DNA of 43,821 nucleotides from Candidatus Micrarchaeaceae archaeon (GTDB taxonomy: Archaea > Micrarchaeota > Micrarchaeia > Micrarchaeales > CABMGC01): assembly GCA_038873795.1 (NCBI GenBank), contig JAVZDR010000002.1, forward strand, positions 1 to 43,821, in the 5' to 3' direction. The position numbers and the translations under genes were made by a program. The notes beneath the pieces are model-generated. The model worked only from the letters and a program-made list of their open reading frames with translations, was not told the origin of the DNA and searched no databases. Below are positions 5,863-36,827 of this stretch, one piece after another; positions within the stretch are counted from its first letter, which is position 1, and every line of letters begins with the position of its first letter.

Positions 5863-5901
5863 GGTAATATATTATATTAAAAATATATAAACGGTGATTT
5901 T

Positions 5902-6342
5902 GCGTTCTTCGTTGTCAGGGTAACATCAAGCCAGGAAAAGATAACTGCAGACATACTACAAAACAAGGTATCAAAGACCAATATTCCAGTTTATGCCATA
6001 GTGATAGCAGAAGGGATGCGTGGCTACCTTATACTCGAAGCGGAAAGTGACGGCGCTGTCAGGGAATTAATAACAGGCGAGCCCCACATAAAGGGCATGC
6101 TGCCAACCCCACTAAGCCCTGAAGAACTAGACAAGATGATAGAAATAAAGAAATATACGCAAGAGATAAAGGTAAATGATATAGTTGAATTTTCGTCTGG
6201 GCCATTCAAGGGTTACAAGGCAAAAGTAATGCGCGTTGACCCTGCCAAAGACGAAATAACCGTGGAATTAATGGATGTTGTAGTGCCAATCCCTGTAACG
6301 ACAAAGTCGAATCTTGCCAGGGTTGTGCAGAAGGCTGAATAA
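5902..6342 (+). CDS. spt5: Transcription elongation factor Spt5 (NusG); probable non-canonical GCG start
   Basis: NGN N-terminus FFVVRVTSSQEK is in frame upstream of track start 6001; GYLILEA; KOW motif SGPFKG; in-frame stop at 5878-5880. Confidence 0.93.
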   Translation, partial: AFFVVRVTSSQEKITADILQNKVSKTNIPVYAIVIAEGMRGYLILEAESDGAVRELITGEPHIKGMLPTPLSPEELDKMIEIKKYTQEIKVNDIVEFSSGPFKGYKAKVMRVDPAKDEITVELMDVVVPIPVTTKSNLARVVQKAE

Positions 6343-6353
6343 ATGGTGGAAAT

Positions 6354-6821
6354 ATGTCTGAAATGGTTATAGCCGGACTTATAGAAGGAGGCAAGGCCTC
6401 AGGTGGACCGCCTTTCGGGCCAGCACTCGGGCCGCTTGGCGTGAACGTGAATGAAATAGTAAATGAGATAAACAAGAAAACGAAGGCATTTGAGGGCATA
6501 AAGGTACCCGTCAAAGTAATTGTTGACACGGCAACAAAAAAGTACGAAATCGAAGTCGGCGCACCCCAGACAAGCGCATTAATACTCAAGGAACTGGGCC
6601 TGCAGAAAGGTTCCGGGAAGAAGGAGGAGGTAGCGGGCAACATAACCTTGGAGCAGGTTAAGGGCATAGCCAAATCAAAGGAAGCCCTTCTTTATGGGAA
6701 CACCTTCGCCGACAAAGTAAAGCAGGTCCTAGGAACGTGCAAAAGTATGAATATAACAGTAGAGGGCAAGGATGCAAGGGAAATCATAAAGCAGATAGAT
6801 GAAAACGCAATCGCATTATAG
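6354..6821 (+). CDS. rpl11: 50S ribosomal protein L11
   Basis: GGKASGGPPFGPALGPLG, VPVKV, GTCKSM. Confidence 0.97.
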   Translation: MSEMVIAGLIEGGKASGGPPFGPALGPLGVNVNEIVNEINKKTKAFEGIKVPVKVIVDTATKKYEIEVGAPQTSALILKELGLQKGSGKKEEVAGNITLEQVKGIAKSKEALLYGNTFADKVKQVLGTCKSMNITVEGKDAREIIKQIDENAIAL

Positions 6822-6850
6822 CGAAAGTCTCTGATTTTACACTTCTGGGC

Positions 6851-6863
6851 TTCTCTTCTTTTT
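6851..6863 (+). terminator. Putative pyrimidine/oligo-T terminator after rpl11
   Basis: TTCTCTTCTTTTT 30 nt after the stop codon. Confidence 0.4.
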
Positions 6864-6979
6864 ATAAAACATCAAGCAAGCAGGCGCGGCAGAAGTCGGC
6901 CATCAATTGCATGAATCATATCGGTTGCCAAACCGCAAAGGATAATATACTTTTCTGCAGATAAAGTAGTGGCGATCGC

Positions 6980-8203
6980 ATGGGCGCAGAAACTAAGCAT
7001 GATGATTTTAAATCAGAGCTCATGGAGGTCATAAATGACAAACAGCAGTTAACATATAATGAGCTCAAGGAATTTGCCTCTTCAAGGGGCGTAGGCGAAG
7101 ATGAGCTGAAGCTTGAACTTGGCGAATTGGAATCTGTAAATGCAATCGCCTCGCGAAACAGCGGCGGCATACCAACGTATTATGTCCTACAGGAGACACC
7201 TGCGCTCAGAAGGATAATGATTGTTGAAGATGACAAAAACATCAACAAGCTAATGGCGCTTTCGATAGGCAAAGGGTTCGACATAACTCAGATCTACGAC
7301 GGCGCAGAGGCCCTCAGAAGAATAAAGATGGAGAAGCCTGATCTTATAGTATTGGACCTCATGCTTCCCAACGTAGACGGCCTAACTATCTGCCAAACAA
7401 TCAAGAAAGACCCAAACCTTAGCGACATAATAGTCATAATCGTGAGCGCAATGGACGCAACATCAAACAGATTCAAGGGCATAAAGTACGGCGCTGATTA
7501 CTATATAAAGAAGCCTTTCGATCCAGATGCTCTTCGGAGCCTCGTCACAATATTCTTGAAAAAGAAAGGCAAAAGGTTCGATCCGCTCATAGATCTGCCC
7601 AATGAGGATAAGATATCGAATGCAATAGAGAATGCTGTGAAAAGTGACCTAGAATACGAGATAGGCAAACTCAGGGTAGATGGCCTTGTAGAGTTTGCAA
7701 ATAAGTTTGGCACAGATTCAGGCATGACAATATTGAGGCTAACTTCGCAACTTCTTCAGGATAATGTTGCAGAGGTAAATGGCGGCGCATTCGTGGGCTT
7801 CCTGAACAGCGACGACTTCGTGATAGCCGGCGATAAGGAAGCGGTTGACAAAATTGTCAAAGGCATAAAGGAAGAGTTTGAAGCTGTGCTCCCATTCATA
7901 TACCAAAGCGAGGGATACAAGCCCATAGAGCTCGGGATAGAAGACATTTATGGCGCAGAGGAGCCCAAGCTGAGTCTGATTTACACCACCATAGAGAAGG
8001 ATTCGCTGATTAAAAAGAGGGCCGAAATAATAAAAAGCAAGCCTGTCAAAGACATAGGCTCCTACACTTATGAAGAGCTAAGGCGCATGCTTGGGAGTGA
8101 CAATCTCGATATAACCATAACCAGAGACCCATCAGGAGTGAAGCTTTCTATAGGCAAAGGGCCGCATAAGAGAGAGGGCGAAAACAATTCTGAAAGCAGC
8201 TGA
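6980..8203 (+). CDS. Response regulator: N-terminal winged-helix-like domain, REC and degenerate GGDEF-like domain
   Basis: REC: IVEDD, LDLMLP..DG, VSA, GADYYIKKPF; GGDEF-like: DPLIDLPN...RVDGL..F..KFG...G..IL...VGFLNSDDFVI. Confidence 0.85.
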   Translation: MGAETKHDDFKSELMEVINDKQQLTYNELKEFASSRGVGEDELKLELGELESVNAIASRNSGGIPTYYVLQETPALRRIMIVEDDKNINKLMALSIGKGFDITQIYDGAEALRRIKMEKPDLIVLDLMLPNVDGLTICQTIKKDPNLSDIIVIIVSAMDATSNRFKGIKYGADYYIKKPFDPDALRSLVTIFLKKKGKRFDPLIDLPNEDKISNAIENAVKSDLEYEIGKLRVDGLVEFANKFGTDSGMTILRLTSQLLQDNVAEVNGGAFVGFLNSDDFVIAGDKEAVDKIVKGIKEEFEAVLPFIYQSEGYKPIELGIEDIYGAEEPKLSLIYTTIEKDSLIKKRAEIIKSKPVKDIGSYTYEELRRMLGSDNLDITITRDPSGVKLSIGKGPHKREGENNSESS

Positions 8204-8208
8204 TTCTA

Positions 8209-8526
8209 TTACCTATTTTTGCTGTGCGCTTTCTTCTTGATCGATGCCTTGGCTTTTGGTGTTGGCCTTCTGGTAGCCACTTTTGCTTTGTGCATTGGCT
8301 TTCTTATATGTGTGGTTCTTTTTTTCCTAGGCTGATTCTTCTCTTCTACCCCATAATTTCCAAGTATCTCTGAAGCGTGCATCTCATCAGAAGGCATTGT
8401 TTCACCGCCAGCGGTTTCGAGCAGCGCCCTGCTCTGCGCATCACTCCTTGCAAGTATATAATTTATCTCCTGGGTTTTCCTGAACTTCTCCAGTTCCCTC
8501 TTGATCGCCACCTTCTTCCTAGCCAT
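8209..8526 (-). CDS. Small basic (Lys/Arg-rich) hypothetical protein
   Basis: ATG at 8526 (MARKKVAIK...); C-terminal K/R/A/P-rich tail. Confidence 0.65.
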   Translation of the reverse strand: MARKKVAIKRELEKFRKTQEINYILARSDAQSRALLETAGGETMPSDEMHASEILGNYGVEEKNQPRKKRTTHIRKPMHKAKVATRRPTPKAKASIKKKAHSKNR

Positions 8527-8735
8527 ACAATCAACAGCCAGACAATATTGTATAAATAGAATTAAAGGATTTACTGTTTTTTGGTAAGAGCCCAAGACTC
8601 TTTGATCTCAACGCACTCTAACTGTTGCGCTTTAATCATAATTCCTCCTGGCTCTTGGGGGAGATACTTGCAATATGATATAAGGTGCATCGCAAGCGGC
8701 GCTGGGGGCATATGCGCTGAGACAAGCTTCAAAGA

Positions 8736-8764
8736 AAGCCCAGCCTTTAGCCGAGGAGGGTCAC
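8736..8764 (+). mobile_element. Possible decayed IS200/IS605-family right end
   Basis: AAGCCCAGCCTTTAGCCGAGGAGGGTCAC resembles the archaeal IS605-type end pattern (AAGCCCCGCCCTTTAGGGCGGGGAGGA..TCAC, recalled from memory); no transposase nearby. Confidence 0.3.
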
Positions 8765-9243
8765 GTCGAAACCCTCACACGTATCTTGCCGAACATTATG
8801 TTTGGAAAGCCGGTGAGTGTATTTGTATAATTTAGGAGTATGCTTCCAGTGAATATGCTGCCTACCGGCAGCGATACTGGATTCCCATACTGGTCATAGC
8901 ATTCTACGTTAAACGTATGCGAAGACCCTATTGGCATAGCTATTTGGTTTGATGTGGGAGTGAAAATAGTGCCCATTTTTATGGATGTGGAATTTTCAGT
9001 GCAGCCTATTGCAGTCACGTTTATAGGCTGTGAGGTTACTTGCTCTATGCTTATCGTAAGCAGGCCATTCGATGCCATATAGTAATTCGTGCAGCTAAAT
9101 CCTGCCTCAAGCAGGCATTCTTGGCCAGCGTAGGCATTTGGGTTGAAAAGCCCAAGCGCGAACATTGCAGCAAGCACTGTAGCTACTATAAGAAACATCC
9201 AGCCATAGGTCATCAGATATTCGACTGCGCTCTGCGTTTTCAT
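8761..9243 (-). CDS. Type IV pilin-like protein with class III signal peptide
   Basis: MKT-QSAVEYLMTYGWMFLIV...GLFNP; four Cys; paralog of 4061-4792. Confidence 0.85.
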   Translation of the reverse strand: MKTQSAVEYLMTYGWMFLIVATVLAAMFALGLFNPNAYAGQECLLEAGFSCTNYYMASNGLLTISIEQVTSQPINVTAIGCTENSTSIKMGTIFTPTSNQIAMPIGSSHTFNVECYDQYGNPVSLPVGSIFTGSILLNYTNTLTGFPNIMFGKIRVRVST

Positions 9244-9408
9244 CCTTATCTCTTACCCTATTGTTGCGCAAATAATTTATGCCTTGTGGAAAGAAAAATC
9301 AATATGCTGCTCTCTACCAATCAGCGCAAATATGGCGAAACAGAAAAAGATATAAGCGCTGTAACAAATATACTGAAATAGCAGGCGGGCTAAAAACCAT
9401 TGATCTCT

Positions 9409-10083
9409 ATGGGAAAAACAAATATATTTGGCGTAGAGACCATCTTTCCAGGGGTCTTCAAGCTGGGTAACAGGCTTGCTACTAAAAACAAGGTTCCAGG
9501 GCACAGCACGTACGGTGAGAAGCTTGAAAATGTGGGTGGCGTTGAATATAGATACTGGAACCCATACAGGAGTAAACTGGCCGCTGCAATACTGAAGGGG
9601 CTAAAAGAATTCCACATATCGCATAATTCCAGCGTGCTTTACCTTGGCGCCGCAACTGGGACAACATGCAGCCATATCAGTGATATAGCGTGCGATGGAG
9701 TGATCTATTGCGTGGAAATATCTGAGCAAAGTATGCAAAAGCTTCTCAGGGAATGCGAAATACGCAACAATATGCTACCCTACCTGAGGGATGCAAGAAA
9801 TGTGGAAACATACGCCAATGAGATTGAGAATGTGGATATAATCTATCAGGATGTCTCAGCAAGAGACCAGGCGGAGATACTAATAAGGAACAGCCAGCTC
9901 TTGAATGATAATGGTTATGCGTATGTTGCGATAAAATCGCAGAGCATAGATGTGGGTAAGTCGCCGCAGCAGATCTATAAGGAATTCCTTGAAAAAGCTA
10001 GCAGCGTATTTAAGGTTATAGAAACGATAGACATAATGCCTTATGATAAGTCGCACCTGTTTGCTGTAATGAAGAAACCATGA
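9409..10083 (+). CDS. flpA: Fibrillarin-like rRNA/tRNA 2'-O-methyltransferase
   Basis: YGEKL, EYR.WNPYRSKLAAA, VLYLGAATGTT.SH.SD, YQDV. Confidence 0.96.
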   Translation: MGKTNIFGVETIFPGVFKLGNRLATKNKVPGHSTYGEKLENVGGVEYRYWNPYRSKLAAAILKGLKEFHISHNSSVLYLGAATGTTCSHISDIACDGVIYCVEISEQSMQKLLRECEIRNNMLPYLRDARNVETYANEIENVDIIYQDVSARDQAEILIRNSQLLNDNGYAYVAIKSQSIDVGKSPQQIYKEFLEKASSVFKVIETIDIMPYDKSHLFAVMKKP

Positions 10084-10084
10084 A

Positions 10085-10882
10085 GTGATTGAATTGAAAA
10101 TCGAAGTTAAGAAAGCCCTAAGACTCCTTGGCTCGCAGCAGAAGGCATCGCTTGTCTGCCCATACTGCGGAAGCGAGGTACAATCATATACTGAGGGCGT
10201 GGCCATCTGCAACCTTTGCGAGATGCCGGTCGGCACCGGCAGTACAGCACCTCTAGACAACCCCCAGCTTAAAGAGATATTGGTGGCTAGGGCCAGCGCA
10301 ATTTTTAGTGGCCAGTGGGAAACCGCCCTGGAGATTTCAAGTCAGCTCGAAGGGCACAGCGAACTTCCTATATTATATGGAAATGCAATATTCTACGCAT
10401 GCTACTCAGAATACCTGTACAACAAGACCAATTATACGCTTGGCGGATTCATGGAGGAAAATGCCGCAAACAAGGAGCTCTCAAATGCTATGTATATGAA
10501 GTCTAAGGATTTCCTCTTCAAGGCATTGAACAGGCTGAATGCCAAGGCTGGCCAGCTGGCAGGCGATGAACTGTATATGAACGCCCTGATAAGCATAAAA
10601 CTCGGAAAGAGAGCTATTGCAGCAAGGGAGATAGACGAGCTCTCCAAGCTTAATTATGCGCAGATAGCAATAGACTACCTGAAGCTGCTACTTTCGATGA
10701 GCAGCAACAACATAAGAGAATCAGAAATCCTGATCAACAAGCTTATAAATGCAGGGGAAACAAACTCCATTTATCTCGCGTCAAAGCTGCTTTCAGGCAA
10801 TGATCCAAAATCTGCAAAGCTCCTCTATGGCACGCTAACAAAGAAGATACTGCCATTTTCGCTCCGGCCAAAACCGTTTTAA
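10085..10882 (+). CDS. Hypothetical protein: N-terminal Zn ribbon plus helical (TPR-like) region
   Basis: CPYC...CNLC, then an all-helical Ala/Leu-rich region; true start may be TTG 10094. Confidence 0.7.
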   Translation: MIELKIEVKKALRLLGSQQKASLVCPYCGSEVQSYTEGVAICNLCEMPVGTGSTAPLDNPQLKEILVARASAIFSGQWETALEISSQLEGHSELPILYGNAIFYACYSEYLYNKTNYTLGGFMEENAANKELSNAMYMKSKDFLFKALNRLNAKAGQLAGDELYMNALISIKLGKRAIAAREIDELSKLNYAQIAIDYLKLLLSMSSNNIRESEILINKLINAGETNSIYLASKLLSGNDPKSAKLLYGTLTKKILPFSLRPKPF

Positions 10883-10883
10883 A

Positions 10884-11312
10884 CTATACATCAATTACGA
10901 CCCTTGCGCGCCATTTGCCATTCTCCCTCCATACCTTGAGCATATGCATTGTCACAGCCTTGACATCAACAGCGAGCTTCTGCCTTTCAGCATCTAGTTT
11001 TTCCCCATATGCCGTGCAACGTAGCTTGTAGCCCCTGCCTTCACTTATCTTCACATCAAACCTGCCGAATAAAATCTTTTTTGAATCCTTATATAAGATG
11101 ATCCTGTTCAGAAAAAGGAAAAGGAGCATTTCGAGGCTTTTGGAGGCTACTCCAAACCGCAGGGTCTCTGTATGCCCTATGCGATTTGGATCATCTATCA
11201 TTGCGCTAGTGAGCGCCTCTGCAGCGCTGCTGAATAGATCATCAATGGTGGCGCCGTCAGCCTCGAATGCTAGGTCAGCGATTGCAATGTCATCAATGAA
11301 CCTATAACTCAT
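10884..11312 (-). CDS. Archease
   Basis: IADLAFEA.G...LF, YGE, DVKAVTMH, VVIDV; directly after rtcB. Confidence 0.95.
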   Translation of the reverse strand: MSYRFIDDIAIADLAFEADGATIDDLFSSAAEALTSAMIDDPNRIGHTETLRFGVASKSLEMLLFLFLNRIILYKDSKKILFGRFDVKISEGRGYKLRCTAYGEKLDAERQKLAVDVKAVTMHMLKVWRENGKWRARVVIDV

Positions 11313-11313
11313 C

Positions 11314-12804
11314 TCAACCCTTTACATTAGCAATAGGCCTGAGCCTGAGTACCTTTTTGCTTATTCCGGCCAAGTCCATTGCTTCTACAACATCGTTTAT
11401 GTCCTTGTATGAAAAGCCTGCCTCCTCCGCAAGCCCAGCCATGGTTGTAGCCCTTACATATATGCCTTCCTTGAGCATCTTTTCTCTCAGATCCTCGCCC
11501 CTTATCATTTTCTTCGCCTTCGATCTGCTCATTGTCCTGCCGCTTCCATGAAGAGTTGTGCCGAAGGTTTTCTCTTCCGCGGTTTTTGTGCCAACGCAGA
11601 GGAAGGATCCAGTCTCCATGCTTCCTCCGACTATTACAGGTTGCCCTGTAGATTTGAAAATGCCAATAAGTTCACTGTTGCCTGGGCCAAAGCTTCTTGT
11701 TGCACCCTTCCTATGTACAATTATATCTTTCAGCCTTCCATCTATAGTATGTTTTTCTAAATTGGCTGTATTGTGCGCTACATCGTAGACTATCTCCATA
11801 CCAAGTGCATCCGCGCTCTTTCCAAACACCTTCTCGAATGTGTTCCTTATCTGGTATGTTATGAGCTGCCTGTTGAGGTATGCAAAATTTATTGCCGCAG
11901 ACATAGCACCTATGTAGTCGCGACCTTCATTCGAATTAATTGGTGCATATGCCAGCTGCCTGTCTATGAGCTTTATTCCGTTTTTATCTGCGCTGCTCGC
12001 GAATTTCACAAGGTAATCTGTGCAGATCTGATGCCCGAAACCCCTAGAACCGGTATGCACCATTATGCATACCTGCCCATCGAGAGTGCCAAGCCCCCAT
12101 TTCTTAGCCACATCCTCATCGAAGACCTTGTCTATCGTCTGTATTTCCAGATAGTGGTTTCCTGAGCCTAGAGTTCCAAGCTGTTTTTTGCCCCTGTTGA
12201 ACGCAGCCCTGCTTATCTTCGAAGTGTCGGCATTCTCTACATGCCCATACCTTTCTATCTTGCCTTTGTCAGAGTCAAACCCATAGCCATTGCTTATGGC
12301 CCAGTCCACTCCTTCGTCAACAGCCTCCTTGAATCTGCTCTCAGAGAGCCTAGAGAGCTCTTTAGGCTCTTGGTATGACGTTGCCCCAACACCAGCCGGG
12401 ACAGTCTTGAAAAGCATGTCTGTCAGCTCTCTTATCTTGGGCTTAATCTCGTCAACTGTAATGTTAGTTTTGATAAGGCGCATTCCGCATCCTATATCAA
12501 ACCCTATGGCGCCGGGGGATATTATCCCGCTATCTGCATCGAATGCTCCGCTCCATCCAACCGGCACCCCGTAGCCAGAATGCCCGTCGCTGAATACATA
12601 AGAATAATTGATCAGCCCAGGAAGCATCGCGGCATTGCTTGCCTGATCGAAAACCTCAAGATCCATCTGGCTCAACAGCTTTTCAGTGGCGAAGATCTTC
12701 ACAGGCACATTCATACCTTCCTTAAACTCTGTTGGTATTTCCCACTCCACGTCTGATATCTTCCTGAAAGCTGGCTTCTTGAATTCAATATTTTTGAAAG
12801 ACAT
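11314..12804 (-). CDS. rtcB: RNA-splicing ligase RtcB
   Basis: DGHSGYG, GFDIGCG, GSGNHYLE, HTGSRG, HN, HRKGAT, HGSGR, YKD. Confidence 0.97.
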   Translation of the reverse strand: MSFKNIEFKKPAFRKISDVEWEIPTEFKEGMNVPVKIFATEKLLSQMDLEVFDQASNAAMLPGLINYSYVFSDGHSGYGVPVGWSGAFDADSGIISPGAIGFDIGCGMRLIKTNITVDEIKPKIRELTDMLFKTVPAGVGATSYQEPKELSRLSESRFKEAVDEGVDWAISNGYGFDSDKGKIERYGHVENADTSKISRAAFNRGKKQLGTLGSGNHYLEIQTIDKVFDEDVAKKWGLGTLDGQVCIMVHTGSRGFGHQICTDYLVKFASSADKNGIKLIDRQLAYAPINSNEGRDYIGAMSAAINFAYLNRQLITYQIRNTFEKVFGKSADALGMEIVYDVAHNTANLEKHTIDGRLKDIIVHRKGATRSFGPGNSELIGIFKSTGQPVIVGGSMETGSFLCVGTKTAEEKTFGTTLHGSGRTMSRSKAKKMIRGEDLREKMLKEGIYVRATTMAGLAEEAGFSYKDINDVVEAMDLAGISKKVLRLRPIANVKG

Positions 12805-12829
12805 ATAATCACAATATTATGCCACGCAA

Positions 12830-13264
12830 CTAATATAACTTCTTTTCTAGAAGCAGCCTCTCGCGCTCCTTCATCATGCACCTGTTCTCAATGAAAATGA
12901 TACCGTTTTCACTTGCATAGCGCTCGGCGTCGTCGCTGAATATGCCTTCCTGAAGCCACAGGGCCTTTGCACCAATCTTAACCGTGTCTTTGGCTATGGC
13001 CAATGCCTCGCTGCCTGGCCTAAATACGTCCACCACTTCAATCCTTATGCTGCTGGGTATCTCGAGCAGCGACTTGTATGACTTTTCGCCAAGTATTTCA
13101 TCCGCAAACGGGTTCACAGGCACTATGGTATAGCCTGCATTCTTGAGGTATGCCGGTACATCATGGCTGGGCTTGCCTTCCTGCCTTGAGCATCCAACAA
13201 CCGCAATCCTCTTGAAGTTGCGCAGAACATAAATTGCCGCTTCCTCCTTCGAATCATAAACCAG
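12830..13264 (-). CDS. CoA-binding (YccU-like) protein; probable CTG start
   Basis: In-frame N-terminus RIAVVGCSRQEGKPSHDVPAYLKNAGYTIVPVNP lies upstream of track start 13123; VDVFRP, WLQEG, NRC. Confidence 0.9.
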   Translation of the reverse strand: MVYDSKEEAAIYVLRNFKRIAVVGCSRQEGKPSHDVPAYLKNAGYTIVPVNPFADEILGEKSYKSLLEIPSSIRIEVVDVFRPGSEALAIAKDTVKIGAKALWLQEGIFSDDAERYASENGIIFIENRCMMKERERLLLEKKLY

Positions 13265-13323
13265 CTTACCACCTATCTTATTAATACAATAATATTATAT
13301 CTGTTTTCTTAAAAATATAAACT

Positions 13324-13701
13324 ATGCACAAGGGAAGTGTAATCATATTAGACACAAGTGCGATGGTATTCAGCATGCGCAACAGAATAGATATATTTGA
13401 TGTTGCAAGAGAGAGATTTCCTGGGCATGCTATCCTAATATCTGAGGGCATAATAAAGGAACTTGAGAGATTTTCCAGAAGCAAGCAGCGCATAGGCAAA
13501 TATGCAAAGCTGCTTCTTATGAACATTCGGAGAAGCAATATAAAAATTGACAAAGACAACGGCTACGTCGATTCTTGGATACTTAAGGCAGCATCAGAAT
13601 CGCAGGGCATAGTATGCACAAACGACATCGCACTTAAAAGAAAGCTTGAAGCAAATGGCATAAAGGTGTTCAGCATAAGCAGGAAAGGACTGCTGCGATG
13701 A
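13324..13701 (+). CDS. PIN-domain ribonuclease (Fcf1/Utp24-like)
   Basis: ILDTS, EL, VD..IL, VCTND..LKRK; usual position before rpoE1. Confidence 0.85.
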   Translation: MHKGSVIILDTSAMVFSMRNRIDIFDVARERFPGHAILISEGIIKELERFSRSKQRIGKYAKLLLMNIRRSNIKIDKDNGYVDSWILKAASESQGIVCTNDIALKRKLEANGIKVFSISRKGLLR

Positions 13702-13824
13702 AAAACTTCTACACATGCCAAACTCCACCTTTCAACGTACCCCAACACTTCAATATACTTTATATATTTTTTGATATGTTTATATATAGCGCCTTGCTAT
13801 TTATAGACAGATATTGGTGACACT

Positions 13825-14397: not shown

Positions 14398-14398
14398 T

Positions 14399-14587
14399 AT
14401 GGAAAAGGCCTGTAAAAAATGTCGGCTCATAATAGCTCAGGGCACAGCCTGCCCTATATGCGGCTCAACCGACCTCACCACGAAGTGGCACGGCTACATA
14501 ATGATACTTAATGCTGAGAAATCAGTGCTTGCCAAGAAGTTTGGCATAAATATCAACGGCACTTATGCACTGAGCATTTCAGAATAG
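14399..14587 (+). CDS. spt4: Transcription elongation factor Spt4 (RpoE'')
   Basis: KACKKC...CPICGS...W.G...S.LAK...GTYAL. Confidence 0.95.
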   Translation: MEKACKKCRLIIAQGTACPICGSTDLTTKWHGYIMILNAEKSVLAKKFGININGTYALSISE

Positions 14588-14589
14588 CA

Positions 14590-15282
14590 CTATCTCTTTT
14601 CAATCTCGTTTCTGAGATGCTCTTCCTCAACGACTACCCTGTTTATCTTCCCGAAGTATTTCAGCAGGTCACTTACAAGGCTCTCTTTGCCCATAAAGTA
14701 GTTTGCGTCGAACTTATTTAACCCTGATCTTACTGAGATTCTTGCGGAATCCCCGCTTATAGATACTGCAGGCTGTTTTATACCATGGTATTCAGCCAGC
14801 GCCCTCACCTTATCCTCGTCAGTCTCCTCCCTTTCTACTATTTTTACTTCATAAATCATTTTTTCGCCAGCGAACCTGTGGTTTGCGTCTATCACTACCC
14901 TCCCTGAGTTTATCGATTTTACAGTAGCCATCACACCGTCAACGTCAAGGACCATCCCAACATATGGGTTTATGCCCCTGCGCTTCAGATCTGACATGGG
15001 CAGGACTCTCACCAAGTCTGGGTTTCTTTCACCGAATGCATCTTTTGGTTCAAGCTCTATCTTTTTGGTCTGGCCTACGTCCATATCGCGCATAGCCGCG
15101 TCAACTCCCCTTACCACCATGCCCTTCCCAACAACCACAAGATGCGGCCCATATGTCATATTTTCGTCAAATATGCCCGCCCTTTTGGCTTCATCAGCAT
15201 CTGTTGTGTAGACCATCGCATTGTCTGCAGCCCTCCAGACTTTGTATTCGACTTTTACAAAATCTCCTTCATTTAAAGTCAC
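14590..15282 (-). CDS. Long-type FKBP peptidyl-prolyl isomerase (SlyD-like)
   Basis: GDFVKVEY, P..AFGER, GRVVIDANHRFAG; archaeal C-terminal extension. Confidence 0.92.
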   Translation of the reverse strand: MTLNEGDFVKVEYKVWRAADNAMVYTTDADEAKRAGIFDENMTYGPHLVVVGKGMVVRGVDAAMRDMDVGQTKKIELEPKDAFGERNPDLVRVLPMSDLKRRGINPYVGMVLDVDGVMATVKSINSGRVVIDANHRFAGEKMIYEVKIVEREETDEDKVRALAEYHGIKQPAVSISGDSARISVRSGLNKFDANYFMGKESLVSDLLKYFGKINRVVVEEEHLRNEIEKR

Positions 15283-15503
15283 TCAACCACCTAACATCAT
15301 TTCAAATGCACCAATTGCAACTTATCTAACCCAGCGAGAATCCACGAAGTTATCTATTGGATTAGCGAGCAGATGGGCAGAAGATTTTTGTAAACACATA
15401 TATAAATTCCTTTTCGTTTAAAATAAATTATTAACTCAGCGGCTAAACAGGAATTAATTTGAAGGGCGCCGTGTGCTTTCTATCAATGCTGGCAATCTAA
15501 AAG

Positions 15504-17836: not shown

Positions 17837-17837
17837 C

Positions 17838-26745: not shown

Positions 26746-26750
26746 CTAGC

Positions 26751-27170
26751 CTAGGCAGAGATTATCCTCGATATCCTAGAAAGCCTATGGCCTTCGGCCT
26801 TCAGCTCTATCTCATAGAAAATCCCGAAGGCAAGCTTGTATACCTCGAAATTCCTCTCCTTAAGCTTTGCATATAGGCTGTTCAGCATTTTGCTCGCATC
26901 CTGCGTGTTGGCGAGGTCGCCGAAGAGGTGCGCAAAAGGGTTGAGGACAATTGTGCGAAGGCCCAGGGTTGCGCATATCCTGAGTAGCTCATTTGCGGTC
27001 CTGTCGACAATCTCAACAGGGTTTGAGGTATCTGATTTCTCAAAGCTTATGAAAACCAAAAGGGCGTTCTCCACGCTGAGCTCGCTGGCTTCTTCAATGA
27101 GATCCGAGCGGCCTTTTTCCTTTGGGTAAGCCCTGAAATATTTCACATGCCATGCCATGAACCTTGCCGT
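26751..27170 (-). CDS. Stand-alone archaeal threonyl-tRNA synthetase editing domain; start uncertain (ACG 27170, ATG 27158 or TTG 27227)
   Basis: RFMAWHVKYF, NALLVFISFEKSD, PFAHL, FG.FY...L...GH. Confidence 0.85.
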   Translation of the reverse strand, partial: TARFMAWHVKYFRAYPKEKGRSDLIEEASELSVENALLVFISFEKSDTSNPVEIVDRTANELLRICATLGLRTIVLNPFAHLFGDLANTQDASKMLNSLYAKLKERNFEVYKLAFGIFYEIELKAEGHRLSRISRIISA

Positions 27171-27297
27171 GATACCACTTGCAATTGCCTTGCGCTGTAG
27201 TCTGCGCAGCTGCTTGGAAATCCCCAAACCTTTCCAAACCGCCGGCAGCTAGATTCTTGCCATTGGTTTTTGGCCCAATCGCACAGTCTGCCCATGA

Positions 27298-27368
27298 TGG
27301 AGGCAAGGAGAATCGAACTCCTGCTTGCAGAATGTCAATCTGCCGTCCTACCACTAGACGATGCCTCC
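27298..27368 (-). tRNA. tRNA-Val(GAC), CCA not encoded
   Basis: GGAGGCA/TGCCTCC acceptor stem; GCAGA-TTGACAT-TCTGC anticodon arm; AGGAG-TTCGATT-CTCCT T arm; A73. Confidence 0.9.
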
Positions 27369-27384
27369 TCGTTTATACTTGGTC

Positions 27385-30197: not shown

Positions 30198-30215
30198 AAA
30201 ATCGCCGCATAAGCA

Positions 30216-31202: not shown

Positions 31203-32034
31203 TGCCAACACCTTTTCCCCCAAGCAATCTGCTAGCGAGTGCTCTTATGTAGCCCTCAGGCACGCTATCTATAGCATATCCTATCCAATCCTTGCCAAAT
31301 GGTATATAAACGCTCAGCCGTGCGTTTCCATCCTTGGCAATTTTAAATACTTTTTTTTCATTATACCCAAGGGGAAATTCGAGTGAGAGCACGTCCCTAT
31401 ATCTGCTACCATTCTTAAGTATCTTGTGGAGCACATTTTCTGTGGGCAGCTTCAGTACAACCTTCTTTGAATGCGAGCAGAGCTTCTCGACCGCGTTGAA
31501 AAAGTCTGCAATATCCTTTTTCTTGAGCTCACCATCATTCGCCTTTTTGCAGGGTATCATTATCCTCTCAGCCTTTCCGCCCTTCTTGAAATACTGGAGC
31601 GCCGCAGTGTAGCTATCAAAGACCTTGCCGACAGATGCATAACTCTTTTGCATTGAAGGATCTTCGGCTATGCTTGGATCTGTGTCAATCCAAATGGGCA
31701 CCGAGTATTTCTTGCTGGCTTCTGCCACTCGCTTTATATCGGCGATGCTGGATCCTCCAATTGGATTATGGCCTAACCTCAGCTGCCTTACATGCACGCT
31801 TGCATTTATGCCCCTCCTGGCTATCTCCCTAAGCAGCTGCACATACGTATTAATCACATAATTAGCTTTCGCCCTGTCTTCTGGAATGCTGCTCAGAAAT
31901 GCTATCGTTGCGCCTATCTTTTTTCCATTGAGATCCATGGCTTTCTTCAGGGAAGAGTCCATAGTGTAGCCAGCTATATGCCTCTTCACTATCTTGTAAA
32001 TTACCTTCTCTACAAACGACTCTTGTTGCTCCAA
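31195..32034 (-). CDS. Proline dehydrogenase-like protein, apparently degenerate
   Basis: RHIAG.T, IWID, LEF.LG, VYIPFG.DW..Y; catalytic motifs missing. Confidence 0.75.
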   Translation of the reverse strand: MEQQESFVEKVIYKIVKRHIAGYTMDSSLKKAMDLNGKKIGATIAFLSSIPEDRAKANYVINTYVQLLREIARRGINASVHVRQLRLGHNPIGGSSIADIKRVAEASKKYSVPIWIDTDPSIAEDPSMQKSYASVGKVFDSYTAALQYFKKGGKAERIMIPCKKANDGELKKKDIADFFNAVEKLCSHSKKVVLKLPTENVLHKILKNGSRYRDVLSLEFPLGYNEKKVFKIAKDGNARLSVYIPFGKDWIGYAIDSVPEGYIRALASRLLGGKGVGSE

Positions 32035-32313
32035 TTCATCACGAGCTTATACTATATAAATAACAAGATTTTTATCAATTATGCATGAAAAATCACATTT
32101 TTTAAATGGATTGCAGTCTGCTCCGCAAATTCGGCGCAAGATTTTTGGCATAAAGTAAAAACATTATACTTAATATATACAATGGTATATTGCTTGCCAA
32201 GTAGCAAACTACTAAATAAATGTGCATAACGAACTATATAGCTGCAATGCTGTTGAAGCAGGCAATACAAAACCATCTATGATAATTTTCGTTGCAGGCC
32301 TGCCTGGCTATGG

Positions 32314-33585
32314 GTGATGCGAATGCTGCCTTTATCCAAAACGCCCGGAAATGCTGGCCAGATGGAAAAAAATGCGGGAGCCTTCCTGGTCAGGGAGATA
32401 ATACCAAATGGCACAGTGCTTGAGCTTGGCAGGCATTACACAAGCAGCGATCTTGGGGAGCAGGATTCAAAGGAAGGCAAATTCGTGCGGTTCCTGCTGC
32501 AGAAAGAGAACTGGGATACAATACAGGCGCTTGCAACCATTGCCAAAAGGTTCGGTAGGGGGATAAAGTCGATAGGATACGCAGGAATGAAGGACAGGCT
32601 CTCTAAGTCGGTGCAGATGGCGAGCATATTCGGAATTACGCCAGATGCTATTGAGGGATTGCACATAAAGGACATCGAGATAAACGGCGCATGGCAGTCA
32701 ACTAAGGCTGTAGAGCTAGGGGACCTGCTTGGCAATTCATTTTCTGCAACGATAGACAGGCCGCTAAATGAGCGGCATGTTGAGCGCATCCTATCAGAGC
32801 TCAATGGCGTGATGCCAAATTACTTTGGCATGCAAAGGTTCGGATCTAGGCAGAACAACTTCAGGATAGGCATCAGCATACTCAATGGCGATTTTGAGGG
32901 CGCGGCAATGACGTTCCTGACTTCTACAGAAAACGAGACGAATAGCGAAGCGATAGAAGCAAGGCGGAGGCTTGCGGATGAGCAAGACTTTGCAGCTGCT
33001 GTAGAATATTTTCCAAAATACCTCAAATACGAGCGCAGGGTGCTGGCATATATAGCCCAATATGGCAATTTTGCGAATGCCCTCCGAATCCTTCCAAGGG
33101 GCATCTTATTAATGTTTGTGCATTCTATCGAGGATGTGATATTCAATGCAGCGTTGGAGGCTCGCATAAGGAATGGTGATTTTGATAACGAAGCAGAACA
33201 TTGCGGGCTGAATGCCTATGGCTTTCCAGATATAGCCAAACCATGCGAGCAATCAGGCGCAGTATGCCTACCAGTAGGTAACTTGATAGGCTATGAAACC
33301 CCTAGGGCAAAGATAAGCAGCTACGAAAAAGCGGCCATGGAAGCGTTGGGAATAAATCCTGAAATGTTCAGGATAAAGGCCATGCCTGAACTGAGCATGA
33401 AAGGCGGACTGCGTCCCCTTCTTGCCACTTTCAAGAATTTTTCGTTTAAAAACAGTGAAGAGAAGGCAATCCTCAATTTTTCGCTGCCTGCAGGCTCATA
33501 TGCAACAGTCTTTGTCAACGAATTCACAAAGTGCGACCAATCAAGCCTAAAAATGGCGCCGGAGCTGGGAGATTCATGGCGTTGA
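32314..33585 (+). CDS. truD: tRNA pseudouridine(13) synthase TruD
   Basis: F.VRE, K.NWDT, YAGMKD, GN.F, NYFG.QRFG, F.LP.GSYAT. Confidence 0.95.
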   Translation: MMRMLPLSKTPGNAGQMEKNAGAFLVREIIPNGTVLELGRHYTSSDLGEQDSKEGKFVRFLLQKENWDTIQALATIAKRFGRGIKSIGYAGMKDRLSKSVQMASIFGITPDAIEGLHIKDIEINGAWQSTKAVELGDLLGNSFSATIDRPLNERHVERILSELNGVMPNYFGMQRFGSRQNNFRIGISILNGDFEGAAMTFLTSTENETNSEAIEARRRLADEQDFAAAVEYFPKYLKYERRVLAYIAQYGNFANALRILPRGILLMFVHSIEDVIFNAALEARIRNGDFDNEAEHCGLNAYGFPDIAKPCEQSGAVCLPVGNLIGYETPRAKISSYEKAAMEALGINPEMFRIKAMPELSMKGGLRPLLATFKNFSFKNSEEKAILNFSLPAGSYATVFVNEFTKCDQSSLKMAPELGDSWR

Positions 33586-33671
33586 GCCAATTTGAACCCA
33601 GATTGCCAAAGGCAACCAGATCTCGAGTTTCGCCACTTTCTGGCGCATTAACCTGGTTCTGCCACTCCGGC
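33554..33671 (-). tRNA. tRNA-Ser(CGA) with two non-canonical introns (30/31: 33629-33639; 59/60: 33571-33590) and encoded CCA
   Basis: GCCGGAG/CTCCGGC acceptor stem, G73, long variable arm TTGCC-TTT-GGCAA; removing the 11-nt and 20-nt introns restores CCAGA-CTCGAGA-TCTGG and CTGGG-TTCAAAT-CCCAG (87 nt). Confidence 0.92.
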
Positions 33672-33799
33672 ACGTGCATTTGGGCATACTAAAGCCTTAG
33701 CCCAAACACATACAGATATGGCAGCAGAAGCTTTTATACCTTGCACATCCATGCGCCTAAACCTGGTGCATTTTGGCATCGCCCAAGTGTTGCAAAATC

Positions 33800-35215
33800 T
33801 CAGCATCTCATGTTTTCTGGGACCAAAATCTCAAAATACTTGCTCTCGAAAACAGGCCTGGATTCATTGATATAGCCGCTTATCTTCGGTTTTACATTGA
33901 CGTTTTTGAACGAGACCACTATATATCGCGATTCATCAATGCCGTAATACTGCGGCATATAGGCATTGATGCCGATATACTTCATAGGCACCCAGGCATT
34001 TGATACAATGCTGCAGTTACCGTAGCCAAGCGCGTAGAGTTCGCCCTTAGCATTGTTTAATACAGAAGCCGCATCATTTGGGTTATACAATGGGTAATTA
34101 TAATATTTCATAGAAGAGTGGAATGCAAACGCATAGTATGCCAGCACGGCGAGGCAGATTGCTGCTACCACAAACTGGAGAGCGCCAAGATCCAGCCCAT
34201 AAACGCGCCTGTGTACCTTACCAATCCTGCTGAGCATGTACGCAGCCGCCAGCGACACCCCAAAATAACTGAGGTAGCCGAAACGCGATTGCGAGAAAAC
34301 ATCATAATGCCAGCCGACGAGCATGAATTCGACTATTGAAATCACTAAAAAGCCAATGACAATCTCTCCGGCCATGCTCTTCGGAATGAATATTTTTTCC
34401 CGCATTCTTGGCTTTAGCCTGAATCTCAGCATGTAAAATAGCAAAATTGCAATGGTGCAGAGCAGTGCAGGATACCAGAAGAGACTAAGCATTGTCCCAG
34501 GATACAAGGGCTCAAAAGGGGTAACGAGTGCAACGTTGAAGGCATCTATATAGCTTGCCAGCGGATTCCCAAAAACCGCATAGTTGAAAAGCAGCCAAGG
34601 GAGTACGACCAATGCCTCGAGCAAGAATGCATAAGTTATCTTCTTCGGCTTCCGAAGGAGGAAGAGCAAAGGAAAGAATATCATAGTTGGGTATTTGGCG
34701 AGCGCCGCAAGACCGAAAAGGATTCCAGAGAAGCTGCTCCTCTTGGAAATGAGACCGAGCCCGAAAAGGAGAAACGCAGCCGAGAGCGCCTCTGTGCCAT
34801 TGACTATGAAGCCGAAATAGAGCAGGTATGGGCTGAGGAAAGCAGCGTAAGTCACAAGCCTGTTCATTCCCAGCGCATCGGCCAGGTACGTGGAAGCCCA
34901 GGCGAGCAGCAGGTAAACGAGCACCACATAGCAGAGGAGCGCATATTCTGGGCTCAGCGGCGTGAATGGAAGCATTAGGACTGAGCTCAGCGGCGCCCTG
35001 AAATCCTCAAAATATAGACCCGCAGCTTCTATAGTACCAAAGTTGTTAATTGCTAGAGCGGCATTGCCGTATACGCCGGGGTTGGTCATGCTTTTTGCAT
35101 TGAGATAATGCACTATAAGGTCCCATTCCGGACCGTTGAGATAATAGATATAAACAAGTATCAGAAGCCCTAGGAGCAGAATGGCTGAAGCAACACAAGC
35201 ATTTCTTGCAACCAG
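33800..35215 (-). CDS. GT-C superfamily (PMT/GT87-like) polytopic glycosyltransferase; probable CTG start
   Basis: First TM helix and W-D loop (GPEWDLIVHY) in frame upstream of track start 35113; FRAPL, TE, LA.LAKY, PWL..NY..FGNP. Confidence 0.8.
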   Translation of the reverse strand: MVARNACVASAILLLGLLILVYIYYLNGPEWDLIVHYLNAKSMTNPGVYGNAALAINNFGTIEAAGLYFEDFRAPLSSVLMLPFTPLSPEYALLCYVVLVYLLLAWASTYLADALGMNRLVTYAAFLSPYLLYFGFIVNGTEALSAAFLLFGLGLISKRSSFSGILFGLAALAKYPTMIFFPLLFLLRKPKKITYAFLLEALVVLPWLLFNYAVFGNPLASYIDAFNVALVTPFEPLYPGTMLSLFWYPALLCTIAILLFYMLRFRLKPRMREKIFIPKSMAGEIVIGFLVISIVEFMLVGWHYDVFSQSRFGYLSYFGVSLAAAYMLSRIGKVHRRVYGLDLGALQFVVAAICLAVLAYYAFAFHSSMKYYNYPLYNPNDAASVLNNAKGELYALGYGNCSIVSNAWVPMKYIGINAYMPQYYGIDESRYIVVSFKNVNVKPKISGYINESRPVFESKYFEILVPENMRC

Positions 35216-35306
35216 TCAATCACGGTGATATGAATATAGCAGATGCCTATAAAAACTTATTATTATTTAATTTTAGCGGTTTTATATTACTACATTCGGT
35301 GAGATC

Positions 35307-36827
35307 CTGGGATTTGAGAAGGCTAGAAGGATGTCTGTTGTTGCGTTTATAATGTTTGCAGCGCTAATCAGCATTACATTCTCTGTTTATCTGCTAAGCA
35401 CGGCAAAGAGCGCAAGCACGCTGATAATAGCCTCAATATTCCTTGTAACAACACTCATAGCCGCAGCATACAACGGAATAACCGCATTTTGGTATTATAA
35501 CTCACGCGCCTTCAAATATTACAAGGATAAGCATAAGGCATGGCGGCTTGGCTATTTCCCAAGGGTGGCTCTCGTAGTGCCGACTTACAAAGAGGACGTG
35601 AAACTTGTTGAAAATACGCTGAATAGGCTCAGCCACATGGACTACCCCAAGGAAAAAATGCAGATATACCTCCTTGACGATTCTACAGACAGCGCAACAG
35701 TCAGGGAGCTTAGAAAATTCTCATTGGGAAACGGCATAAAGTATATGCATAGGCGCGTCAGAAATGGCTTCAAGGCGGGTGCGCTGAACAACTTCTTGAA
35801 GCACTCAAATGAAGAATTCATAGCCATATTTGATGCTGACGAATACCTTGTCAATCCACGCTTCCTCAAAGACTTGCTCCCATATTTCCGCGACCCCAAT
35901 GTGGGCTTTGTCCAGACAAAAAAACGCTACGCCACAGGCAGTTTCTTCGCAAACTCGATAAACCTCCTCAACGGCTTTTTTTTCAATTTCATACAGCCAG
36001 CGAGGTCCGTGAGCGGTACTCTGACATACGCAGGCTCGTGCGCACTGATAAGGCGCAGCGCTATAACAAGCGTGGGTGGCTTTCCTGAGGTCGTGCTTGA
36101 GGACACATTCTTTTCATTCGAGACAAAGCTCAAGGGCATAGAGGGCGTATACGTGCCTAAGATTTATGCGCTTGGCAGGCCCATGAACAAATTTACATCG
36201 TTCGCAAAGCAGCAATGGCGCTACAACTATGGTGGCACCGAATTCATGGCTTACTGTGCAAGGAAGACCAACTTCAGAAACATAAGGGCTCGGGATCTCA
36301 TAGACTACATCGCCCACGGCTTCGGGCTCAATTATCTCTCAGTGATAATGCTTGCATTTACAATATTGACCATAGCCGTTGTCTTCTCTGGATTGCCGAT
36401 AGGCTCGTTGAGCATAAGCAGCCTCATGCATCCCATCCAGTCGCAGATAGCTCTCAGCGCATTCTTTGCTATACTCACGTTCACGTCATTAATCGGGCCC
36501 CTGCTTATACTTAGGGAGTATTTCAATTCATTCAGATATGGAGTGATGGTAATGCTCCTGAATTTTGCCGTAGCTTTCACCAGAGCCAAGGCTGCCTTCT
36601 CCGCAATCCTCCATTTTGCCCCATCATGGTCAAAATCCAATACAAACATAAAGGGCAATTTCAGGAGTGCGCTTAAGAATTCGTACGCTGAATTCTCATT
36701 CGCATTGTTCCTTGCAGTGCTCTCTCTCGTTGCCGTCGCTGGCAACAACATTGCTGGAGGCTTCTGGCTGATGTGGTATGCAATACTCTATGGCAGCACA
36801 ACGGTAATGCTGTACAAGTACGGCTAG
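35307..36827 (+). CDS. Processive GT2 glycosyltransferase (cellulose-synthase-like); start CTG 35307 or ATG 35331
   Basis: PTYKE, LLDDS, KAGALN, FDAD, VQT, GS..LIRR, LED, QQWRY; multiple TM helices; no PilZ domain. Confidence 0.9.
   Translation: MGFEKARRMSVVAFIMFAALISITFSVYLLSTAKSASTLIIASIFLVTTLIAAAYNGITAFWYYNSRAFKYYKDKHKAWRLGYFPRVALVVPTYKEDVKLVENTLNRLSHMDYPKEKMQIYLLDDSTDSATVRELRKFSLGNGIKYMHRRVRNGFKAGALNNFLKHSNEEFIAIFDADEYLVNPRFLKDLLPYFRDPNVGFVQTKKRYATGSFFANSINLLNGFFFNFIQPARSVSGTLTYAGSCALIRRSAITSVGGFPEVVLEDTFFSFETKLKGIEGVYVPKIYALGRPMNKFTSFAKQQWRYNYGGTEFMAYCARKTNFRNIRARDLIDYIAHGFGLNYLSVIMLAFTILTIAVVFSGLPIGSLSISSLMHPIQSQIALSAFFAILTFTSLIGPLLILREYFNSFRYGVMVMLLNFAVAFTRAKAAFSAILHFAPSWSKSNTNIKGNFRSALKNSYAEFSFALFLAVLSLVAVAGNNIAGGFWLMWYAILYGSTTVMLYKYG

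Follow-up and report, generated by a model that had tools for sequence, protein, structure and literature searches.

Genes that begin with codons weaker than AUG, GUG and UUG are known in bacteria: infC and pcnB of Escherichia coli start with AUU, and NCBI translation table 11 lists TTG, CTG, ATT, ATC, ATA, ATG and GTG, with GCG and ACG absent from the list. In Staphylococcus aureus, the part of a recent report drawn on here describes conserved weak starts of cvfC1 (AUU), ccpN, infC and citZ (AUA) at the position set by the Shine-Dalgarno (SD) sequence, which gave about 10% of AUG expression in reporters and are missed by standard annotation (PMC13009471). The stretch of DNA analysed in this work, further called the window, comprises 43,821 nucleotides of a Candidatus Micrarchaeaceae archaeon (assembly GCA_038873795.1, contig JAVZDR010000002.1, positions 1 to 43,821 of the forward strand). 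Five of its genes, which encode Spt5, a CoA-binding protein, a membrane glycosyltransferase of the GT87 family, a free-standing editing domain of threonyl-tRNA synthetase (ThrRS-ED) and a GT2 protein, have GCG, CTG, CTG, ACG and CTG, respectively, at the position where an SD-like motif would place the start. Results of our analysis indicate, with a probability that we put at roughly 0.7, that such unusual codons in this genome are real translation starts.

These starts resemble those of S. aureus in that a weak codon stands at the SD-set position, is conserved among relatives and is left unannotated. The sites treated in the relevant part of the S. aureus report are, however, four in number, use only AUU or AUA, have extended SDs and belong to a bacterium in which IF3 does the checking, whereas the window comes from an archaeon with aIF1, aIF1A and aIF2, and the SDs are the ordinary motif of the genome, 5-6 nt in length. 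At least nine of 617 genes, including ribosomal protein and transcription-factor genes, are without a canonical option (ATG, GTG or TTG) here, and the codons are mainly CTG, plus ACG and GCG. Hecht et al. have described initiation at a low level in E. coli on many of the 64 codons, and give the annotated starts as ATG 81.8%, GTG 13.8% and TTG 4.35%, with rare CTG, ATT, ATC and ATA (10.1101/063800). As far as the main text of that work goes, without its supplements, the SD-placed ribosome starts with methionine on near-cognate and some distant codons, in reporters and not in natural genes, and GCG is absent from it.

In Pyrococcus abyssi, according to the portion of the work used here, the SD duplex pre-positions the initiation complex, the initiator tRNA samples triplets in the peptidyl (P) site, and aIF1 destabilises the non-AUG ones (PMC6237735). 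The same machinery is assumed in the archaeon under study, the genome of which encodes aIF1 with a zinc knuckle and a basic loop 1; yet while the P. abyssi system, as described there, discriminates against non-AUG codons, codons other than AUG, GUG and UUG seem to be routine at a subset of genes here. Evolutionary data tabulated by Belinky et al. (2017) show that among 61,358 ancestral AUG starts two changed to CUG and one to AUU, as compared with 363 that changed to GUG and 113 to UUG (PMC5622118). The same approach, a comparison of start codons in close genomes, gives in our case three canonical-to-near-cognate switches beside five canonical-to-canonical ones. The former set, as described in the part of the paper considered, is biased against near-cognate switches because annotated starts and much closer genomes were used. 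Our full-text literature searches returned no report on DPANN or Micrarchaeota in which starts at CTG, ATA, ACG or GCG recur, and one matching preprint, on Nanobdellota, brings up start codons solely in connection with genome rotation. What is new here is the number of genes, the presence of essential genes among them, the archaeal setting and the recurrent GCG, while SD-placed weak starts as such were already known in bacteria.

The window is contig C2 of a genome (G000) of 600,028 bases in 55 contigs, rated 94% complete, in which a simple codon-usage caller found 617 open reading frames (ORFs). It was compared with its sister genome and genus-mate (G001) and with two genomes of other genera, the one-contig G018 and G002; column-exact mapping from G000 to G018 proved unusable, at a median identity of 51% and with starts displaced by 1-5 codons. 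The consensus before the first ATGs of G000 is G-G-T-G-A-T at positions -9 to -4. As an iterated position-weight matrix over-sharpened this motif, a simple count was used instead, in which an SD match is at least five of the six letters of GGTGAT and the spacer is counted from GGTGA. GGTGAT stands at spacer 4 before 88 of the 617 first canonical starts; the other spacers from 2 to 11 fit 0-8 starts, and spacer 1 fits 15, with the codon at spacer 4 in the latter being ATG or TTG in eight cases and CTG in two. The same preference for spacer 4 is seen in G001 (103/765) and G018 (92/800). The fixed 4-nt spacing, postulated in the original prediction from the window alone, is thus a property of the genome that goes beyond chance, and the frequent use of TTG and GTG is borne out as well, as the 88 SD-led canonical starts comprise ATG 56, TTG 21 and GTG 11. 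If every codon at SD+4 in the interval from the upstream stop to the first canonical start is listed, these three are joined by CTG (5), GCG (2), ATA (2) and 14 codons found once each. An in-frame stop immediately precedes 20 of the 88 canonical SD-led starts (TGA 11, TAG 6, TAA 3), often as GGTGATTGA-start, so the adjoining of stop and start that is seen at some unusual codons (TGA CTG) is not special to them.

The anti-SD of these organisms fits this motif. Since the 16S rRNA gene of G000 ends at a contig end and is without its 3' tail, the tail was taken from G001 (C6, ~9120-9140), where it reads ...GGATAGATCACCTCA and is complementary to GGTGAT. It contains GAUCACCUC but no terminal CCUCC, while the usual archaeal 16S 3' tail is ...GGATCACCTCCT, and it thus fits GGTGAT as the preferred SD. 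A codon 4 nt after GGTGA would lie in the register that a GGAGG core reaches at about 7 nt, so that the spacing appears conventional once aligned to the rRNA. Both 16S genes exceed the Rfam archaeal small subunit model in length by about 0.5 kb, with 1847 bases over model positions 4-1369 in G000 (C50:1-1847, locus L001) and 1997 bases over positions 1-1478 in G001 (C6:7140-9136, locus L198), which suggests one or more insertions or introns.

All five unusual codons of the window are in frame, with the predicted pentamers 4 nt upstream, and in three of the genes (spt5, CoA-binding and GT87, a GT-C glycosyltransferase) the claimed lack of any ATG, GTG or TTG before the conserved N-terminus was confirmed. 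The coding region of spt5 (5902..6342, plus strand; NGN and KOW domains by Pfam) is preceded by the SD GGTGAT at 5893..5898, a six-of-six match, which is followed at spacer 4 by GCG at 5902..5904 (GGTGA-TTTT-GCG, 5893-5904). No canonical codon occurs between the upstream in-frame stop and position 6001, which is 33 codons after GCG and within the NGN domain; positions 2-84 of the Pfam Spt5-NGN profile correspond to residues 2-80 of the product, and KOW to residues 92-122. Upstream of the first canonical codon, the differences between G000 and G001 at codon positions 1/2/3 number 2/1/13. The column of GCG contains ATG 12, GTG 11, TTG 4 and GCG 3 among 30 loci, G000 included (one row of each of our 30-locus tables is from the unpublished genome G038, on which no claim is built). 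The three GCG holders are G000, G001 and G018, each of which reads GAT-TTT-GCG; the SD stands at the same position in G001 and also in G018, where it reads AGTGAT and where an in-frame TAG is found six codons upstream of GCG with no near-cognate codon in between. In a tree based on 148 columns, G000 and G001 are placed next to a GTG-bearing genome (support 88/82), and G018 next to another one (94/89), within a well-supported GTG clade. Since both groups of GCG holders pair with GTG-bearing genomes, the change of GTG to GCG probably occurred twice, with the caveat that the tree is that of one short gene and has moderate support.

The gene of the CoA_binding_2 protein (12830..13264, minus strand; PF13380, with profile position 1 at residue 18) has the SD GGTGGT at 13268..13273, matching in five of six letters, and CTG at 13262..13264 at spacer 4 (GGTGG-TAAG-CTG). 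Its first canonical codon, GTG 13123, is 47 codons down, with none between the upstream in-frame stop and this point. Opposite the CTG, the sister genome has ATG (AGTGA-TGGC-ATG; 18 of 19 loci were readable), and in the stretch from CTG to 13123 the two genomes differ at codon positions 1/2/3 in 9/5/25 cases. In the gene of the GT87-family glycosyltransferase (33800..35215, minus strand; PF09594), the CTG at 35213..35215 is the first sense codon after an in-frame TGA (35216-35218) and lies at spacer 4 from the SD CGTGAT (35219..35224, five of six letters; CGTGA-TTGA-CTG). The first canonical codon, GTG 35113, is 34 codons down and is likewise the first one after the upstream in-frame stop. The 34 codons that it would skip encode a hydrophobic N-terminal stretch, in which 21 of 34 residues are identical to those of G001. 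CTG is also found in the same column of G001 (GGCGA-TTTG-CTG), where the preceding codon, TGA in G000, is TTG and an ATG occurs six codons up; more distant orthologues have TTG (L066) or ATG (L067) in this column.

The two remaining genes have canonical codons nearby. The ThrRS-ED gene (26751..27170, minus strand) has ACG at 27168..27170 at spacer 4 from an SD-like AGTGGT (27174..27179, four of six letters; AGTGG-TATC-ACG). Positions 2-137 of PF08915 correspond to residues 3-137 of the ACG-started product, G001 has ATG in the column of ACG (AGTGG-TGCG-ATG), and three distinct ThrRS-ED proteins of at least 90% identity, encoded on other contigs, retain Thr at this position. A canonical TTG (27227) is also present upstream of ACG. 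In the GT2 gene on the plus strand, the SD GGTGAG (35298..35303) is followed at spacer 4 by CTG at 35307..35309 (GGTGA-GATC-CTG, 35298-35309), and both SD, as GGTGAG, and CTG are kept in G001, while the six codons after CTG diverge there. Taken over the five genes, the unusual codon is in every case either aligned with a canonical start of relatives or retained, along with its SD, by the sister genome.

Sequencing errors, a concern raised in the original prediction, were looked for in Logan contigs, the comparison with which spanned 5800-13400 and thereby two of the five unusual codons. Contigs of run X1 (depth ~570), which may be the source sample, have no other letter over 5800-6170, including spt5 positions 5902-5904 (record 1), and one other letter, at 13321, over 12933-13400. 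A contig of 2,927 bases from run X2, of another study, spans 10479-13400 with five other letters, none of which is at 13262-13264, so that the CTG of the CoA-binding gene is identical in contigs of two studies. Coverage of 5902 was not seen in X2. One X2 contig has a loose end at 5883: it matches the window up to this position and continues with 255 unrelated letters, and another population thus differs just upstream of the spt5 SD.

In the whole genome, the unusual codons were assessed with the use of a set of seven single-mismatch codons fixed in advance, with at least 10 codons required to the first canonical start. In G000 such codons make up 6 of 14 hits at the true offset as compared with 3 of 44 at six wrong offsets (p=0.004), and one of these three is the genuine CTG of rps17 at spacer 5; in G001 the respective values are 8/20 and 5/51 (p=0.006). 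A general N-Y-R start rule was considered and rejected, as only CTG, ACG and ATA, a set picked after they had been seen, were enriched, while the other N-Y-R codons gave p=0.12-0.66. Among columns with a conserved SD in G000 and G001, 68 have an unchanged canonical codon, five show switches between canonical codons, and three show canonical-to-near-cognate switches; codons non-canonical in both genomes include CTG/CTG three times, GCG/GCG twice and ATA/ATA once. In total, 8 of about 83 SD-conserved columns have CTG, ATA or GCG in G000.

A screen blind to SD was also performed on orthologue pairs of G000 and G001. It required a tblastn match that extends beyond the first canonical codon, in the upstream direction, by 10 codons or more, with no stops or gaps, an overlap of no more than 12 nt with another ORF, and differences concentrated at third codon positions; the unfiltered tblastn list, in which 110 of 539 pairs reach upstream of the first canonical codon, consists mostly of overlapping genes and conserved non-coding DNA and was set aside. 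The screen was passed by 6 of 539 pairs in G000 and 5 of 565 in G001, and these 11 rows represent 10 genes, as one pair appears twice. In 10 of the 11 rows an SD of at least five of six letters stands at spacer 4 or 5 before CTG (four), ATA (three), GCG (two) or ACG (one), while an SD-like hit is found in 26% of comparable intragenic zones (binomial p=1.3e-5). The rows include spt5, CoA-binding, rps17 (TAG then CTG) and C11:9445 (CTG), RFC and rps3 in G001, a thioredoxin-like gene (ATA; Pfam) in both genomes, and, in G001, genes of an aldehyde dehydrogenase (Pfam; TAA then ACG vs. ATG) and of a small membrane protein (TGA then CTG vs. ATG). The row without SD is C11:5106 (CTA-ATA vs. ATG in G001), and GT87 just misses the filter, with differences of 8/4/12. 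Orthologue alignment, codon enrichment and the SD-blind screen thus all support the claim that the position of SD sets the start and that non-canonical codons repeatedly occur there.

Several of these genes encode components of the translation or replication apparatus. The column of the rps17 CTG, which directly follows TAG at spacer 5 in a gene that has no canonical option in G000, contains TTG 13, ATG 2, GTG 1 and CTG 3 (G000, G001 and G002) among 30 rows. In the remaining 11 rows it is occupied by an ordinary sense codon, mostly preceded by an in-frame ATG or TTG 1-5 codons further up within the 24 bases displayed. Ahead of its first canonical codon, rps17 shows differences of 0/0/5. In rps3, ATA is seen only in G000 and G001 (GTTGAT-TGC-ATA in the latter) among 30 rows, the others having ATG (19), TTG (6), GTG (2) or, in one row, a start one codon later. 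The RFC gene has TGA then GCG in G001 and GTG in G000, with 80 codons to the next canonical codon and differences of 7/4/44. In G018, rps6e reads GGTGT-TTTC-ATA, with TTG in G000 and G001, and another gene reads GGTGT-TCGC-CTG, with ATG in both. As judged from these sequences, the habit of near-cognate starts is spread sporadically over the family, and the genus of the window accounts for most of the cases seen.

Nine of the 617 genes of G000 are without a canonical option before conserved sequence: C2:5902 (GCG, plus strand, spt5), C2:13264 (CTG, minus strand, CoA-binding), C2:35215 (CTG, minus strand, GT87), C13:13259 (CTG), C11:9445 (CTG, 75 codons), C25:5444 (ATA), C39:1820 (ATA; ATG in G001), the SD-less C11:5106 and C6:3006 (CTG), an ABC ATPase gene with no orthologue in G001, in which the first P-loop precedes the first canonical codon. 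The product of this last gene (C6:3006-5666) has 886 amino acids (aa), with two ABC ATPase regions and a phosphoribosyltransferase domain (PF00005, PF00156). Five or six more genes have a canonical alternative nearby: those with ACG at 27170 and CTG at 35307 in the window, rps3 with ATA, two with TTG-CTG pairs and, ambiguously, the EF1A-like GTPase gene with GCG at C1:38667, where ATG 15 codons down still keeps the G1 motif. In the TTG-CTG pairs (C1:41459 and C8:5632 in G000, and the GT87 orthologue on C9 in G001), TTG is 1 nt after the SD hexamer and CTG is at spacer 4. Other candidates were rejected: CGC at C1:3774, which is inside a tRNA gene, and C22:3719 (ATT/ATC) as well as C3:33478 of G001, at each of which the pattern at codon positions 1 and 2 fits a gene on the opposite strand.

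A number of observations speak against the initiation at unusual codons or limit what can be claimed for it. SD-like hexamers before non-canonical in-frame codons number 23 in G000, as compared with 6-39 at wrong offsets, which is no excess; since these hits are not above the wrong-offset range, the SD motif alone is not evidence, and most of the 14 single codons at SD+4 are to be attributed to chance. In G018 the single-mismatch codons are not enriched (6/37 vs. 14/110, p=0.39), while individual cases exist. Six more SD-conserved non-canonical pairs of G000 and G001 (CAA, ACT, CCA and others) look like chance, and a background of chance SD hits is therefore real. In three of the genes a canonical codon is available a short distance downstream, namely ATG 27158 four codons after ACG in ThrRS-ED, ATG 35331 eight codons after CTG in GT2 (CTA in G001), and GTG four codons after GCG in spt5 of G018. 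The comparison with Logan contigs extends to two of the five unusual codons, those of spt5 and CoA-binding. Moreover, nothing in the sequence of aIF1 or of the initiator tRNA explains a relaxed checking of codons, and a direct decoding of GCG, two positions of which do not match the CAU anticodon, is hard to credit. A search for sequencing runs with this DNA returned no RNA run. Initiation at every site rests on sequence and comparison, and the case is carried by codon identity and comparative data.

Among other explanations, the one that survives best, although we consider it unlikely, is the decay of starts, in which the canonical start has been lost and translation proceeds from the next downstream ATG, GTG or TTG to give a shortened protein, or the gene is dying. 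Small genomes of symbiont-like organisms gather slightly harmful changes, and the nearby ATG 27158 of ThrRS-ED and ATG 35331 of GT2 are both used by public gene calls. However, in spt5, CoA-binding, GT87, rps17, RFC of G001 and the ABC ATPase gene C6:3006 the next canonical codon is 18-80 codons down, inside or beyond the conserved cores (NGN at 2-80, the N-terminal core of the CoA-binding domain, the Cys motif of rps17, the P-loops of RFC and ABC), and the skipped codons evolve like coding sequence. Besides, spt5, rps17, rps3 and RFC are essential and occur once each in this genome, the completeness of which is rated at 94%. It is less probable still that another non-canonical codon close by is used in place of the one at SD+4. 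In-frame ATA or ATT codons are indeed found between the upstream stop and SD+4 in spt5 (ATA 5887, present also in G001) and CoA-binding (ATT 13282 or ATA 13276) of G000, but they have no SD of their own, being upstream of or inside the SD, and no near-cognate codon is available in spt5 of G018 between TAG and GCG. The unusual codons of GT87 and rps17 directly follow a stop, and the rigid spacing of canonical starts favours SD+4.

RNA editing, by which C-to-U conversion would give GUG, AUG or UUG from GCG, ACG or CTG and A-to-I conversion would make AUA an equivalent of AUG, appears very improbable: every C-containing unusual start is one C-to-U change from a canonical codon, which is partly trivial given an origin by T>C or A>C, but site-specific recognition would be required at many unrelated genes, and mRNA editing of this sort is not known to us from archaea. 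An artefact of assembly or sequencing, or a minor variant among strains that has entered the consensus, is conceivable in a 55-contig metagenome-type assembly with two of five sites spanned by the contig check, but is hardly credible, as no other letter is seen at these two sites in contigs of runs from separate studies, four of five sites have a counterpart in the independently assembled G001 with an identical codon (spt5, GT87, GT2) or in proteins of other contigs with Thr (ThrRS-ED), and codons of the same kinds recur at SD+4 in G001, G002 and G018. A slip from an out-of-frame TTG that overlaps the spt5 GCG (T-TTG-CG, in three of three GCG genomes) was also considered and rejected, as the frame of TTG 5900 stops after seven codons; the TTG of RFC occupies -4..-2, and no TTG is found in a common place at the sites with CTG, ATA or ACG.

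If translation does start at the unusual codons, it could proceed as follows. The 30S subunit would dock through a duplex between the GGTGAT SD and the GAUCACC part of the 16S rRNA 3' tail, which is suggested by the observed motif and its rigid spacing, and this pairing would put the P site on the codon 4 nt, rarely 5 nt, after GGTGA. The initiator Met-tRNA (CAU) bound to aIF2 would then be accepted on the mismatched codon at reduced efficiency, and the protein would be made with its full N-terminus, as the coding-type conservation between the unusual and the first canonical codons implies. The unusual codons would have arisen by single substitutions (TTG>CTG, GTG>GCG, ATG>ACG, ATG>CTG and ATG>ATA), some of which would have persisted through speciation. 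CTG, ATA and ACG differ from AUG at one position, and GCG at two, being one change away from GUG. C-A mismatches, with C opposite A at position 2 of ACG and GCG or A opposite C at position 3 of ATA, can adopt a wobble-like geometry, which may serve as a rationale.

The components that would be expected to do the checking are ordinary, and the mechanism, SD-anchored and tolerant of near-cognate codons, is for this reason inferred. aIF1, found in 40 of the 41 genomes searched, keeps in G000 its zinc knuckle, loop 1 (KRKFMK) and GG motif, with only conservative differences from six relatives, and the initiator tRNA (C5:14517-14592) has A1:U72, three G:C pairs in the anticodon stem and the anticodon CAU. 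It is the one CAU-anticodon tRNA that ARAGORN found in G000, with one found also in G001; a tRNA-Ile (UAU) is encoded at C3:38854-38929 of G000. Thus, of the proposal that codon checking is relaxed, the recurrence of the codons at SD+4 stands, at a scale of about 9 genes in 617, while its cause is a matter of inference; likewise, the inspection of the translation machinery that had been suggested revealed an unusual 16S tail complementary to GGTGAT, but nothing diagnostic in aIF1 or initiator tRNA. As a tentative extension, to which we assign somewhat less than even odds, a ribosome anchored by GGTGAT may accept initiator tRNA even on two-position mismatches, with GCG as a working natural start of essential genes (spt5 in two genera and RFC in G001).

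The window as a whole represents an archaeal information-processing neighbourhood. Pfam searches with its proteins confirmed the genes of S19e, a PDCD5-like protein, aIF6, prefoldin, FtsY/SRP54, Trm5, Spt5, L11, fibrillarin, RtcB, archease, Rpb7/RpoE, Spt4, FKBP, GluRS, GGGPS (PcrB), NAC and others. The gene names of the original prediction are accordingly valid where submitted to Pfam, except that 'rpl31e' (ORF 1468-1800, with an ordinary SD+4 TTG start) hits no Pfam family at E<=0.001, and rpoL was outside the Pfam set. The nine canonical SD+4 examples named in it are all present, among them rpoL (452-463), rpl11 (GGTGG-AAAT-ATG, 6345..6356, plus strand; Pfam L11) and FKBP (GGTGG-TTGA-GTG, 15282..15291, minus strand, with GTG at 15280-15282 and an in-frame TGA before it; Pfam FKBP). 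A 14-mer, AAAAATATATAAAC, occurs at 5879-5892 and 13303-13316, in both divergent intergenic regions with an unusual start (spt5/Trm5 and CoA-binding/PIN), and looks like a common promoter element of TATA type. Judging from its distance to the TATA-like element at 5879-5892, the Trm5 mRNA (ATG 5862, minus strand) may be leaderless. Leaderless initiation was rejected for the five unusual sites of the window, all of which have a conserved SD and codons other than AUG.

Elsewhere in the genome, two conserved, coding-like stretches lie in one frame with a single stop between them (TAG at G000 C22:3719, TAA at G001 C3:21380); their position pattern of 0/4/11 suggests a real gene on the opposite strand. 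A 772-codon ORF of G000 (C28, ~2169, minus strand), on a contig with a run of 100 N, has its first ATG, GTG or TTG at residue 119; 63 of the 69 residues before it are identical to those of G001 (differences 2/4/11), yet no start was found for it.

Gene callers would be expected to miss starts of this kind, and at least four genes of the window are indeed represented in public protein sets by products shortened at the N-terminus, such as a CoA-binding protein of 97 aa that lacks the N-terminal core and a GT87 enzyme that lacks the first hydrophobic stretch. In the case of Spt5, the 113-aa product that would start from GTG 6001 has no exact copy in the public protein collection. As a consequence of such truncations, domain, topology and completeness calls for genomes of this type are biased. 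If our interpretation is true, the start sets used in the annotation of these small-genome archaea need to include CTG, ATA, ACG and GCG, and essential genes (those of Spt5, S17, S3 and RFC) would be expressed from codons that textbook archaeal initiation rejects. Should GCG be among the working starts, the P-site proofreading by aIF1 and aIF2 would be set differently here than in every system studied. These archaea would then offer a natural system for weighing the SD anchor against aIF1 and aIF2 in the fidelity of start-codon selection.

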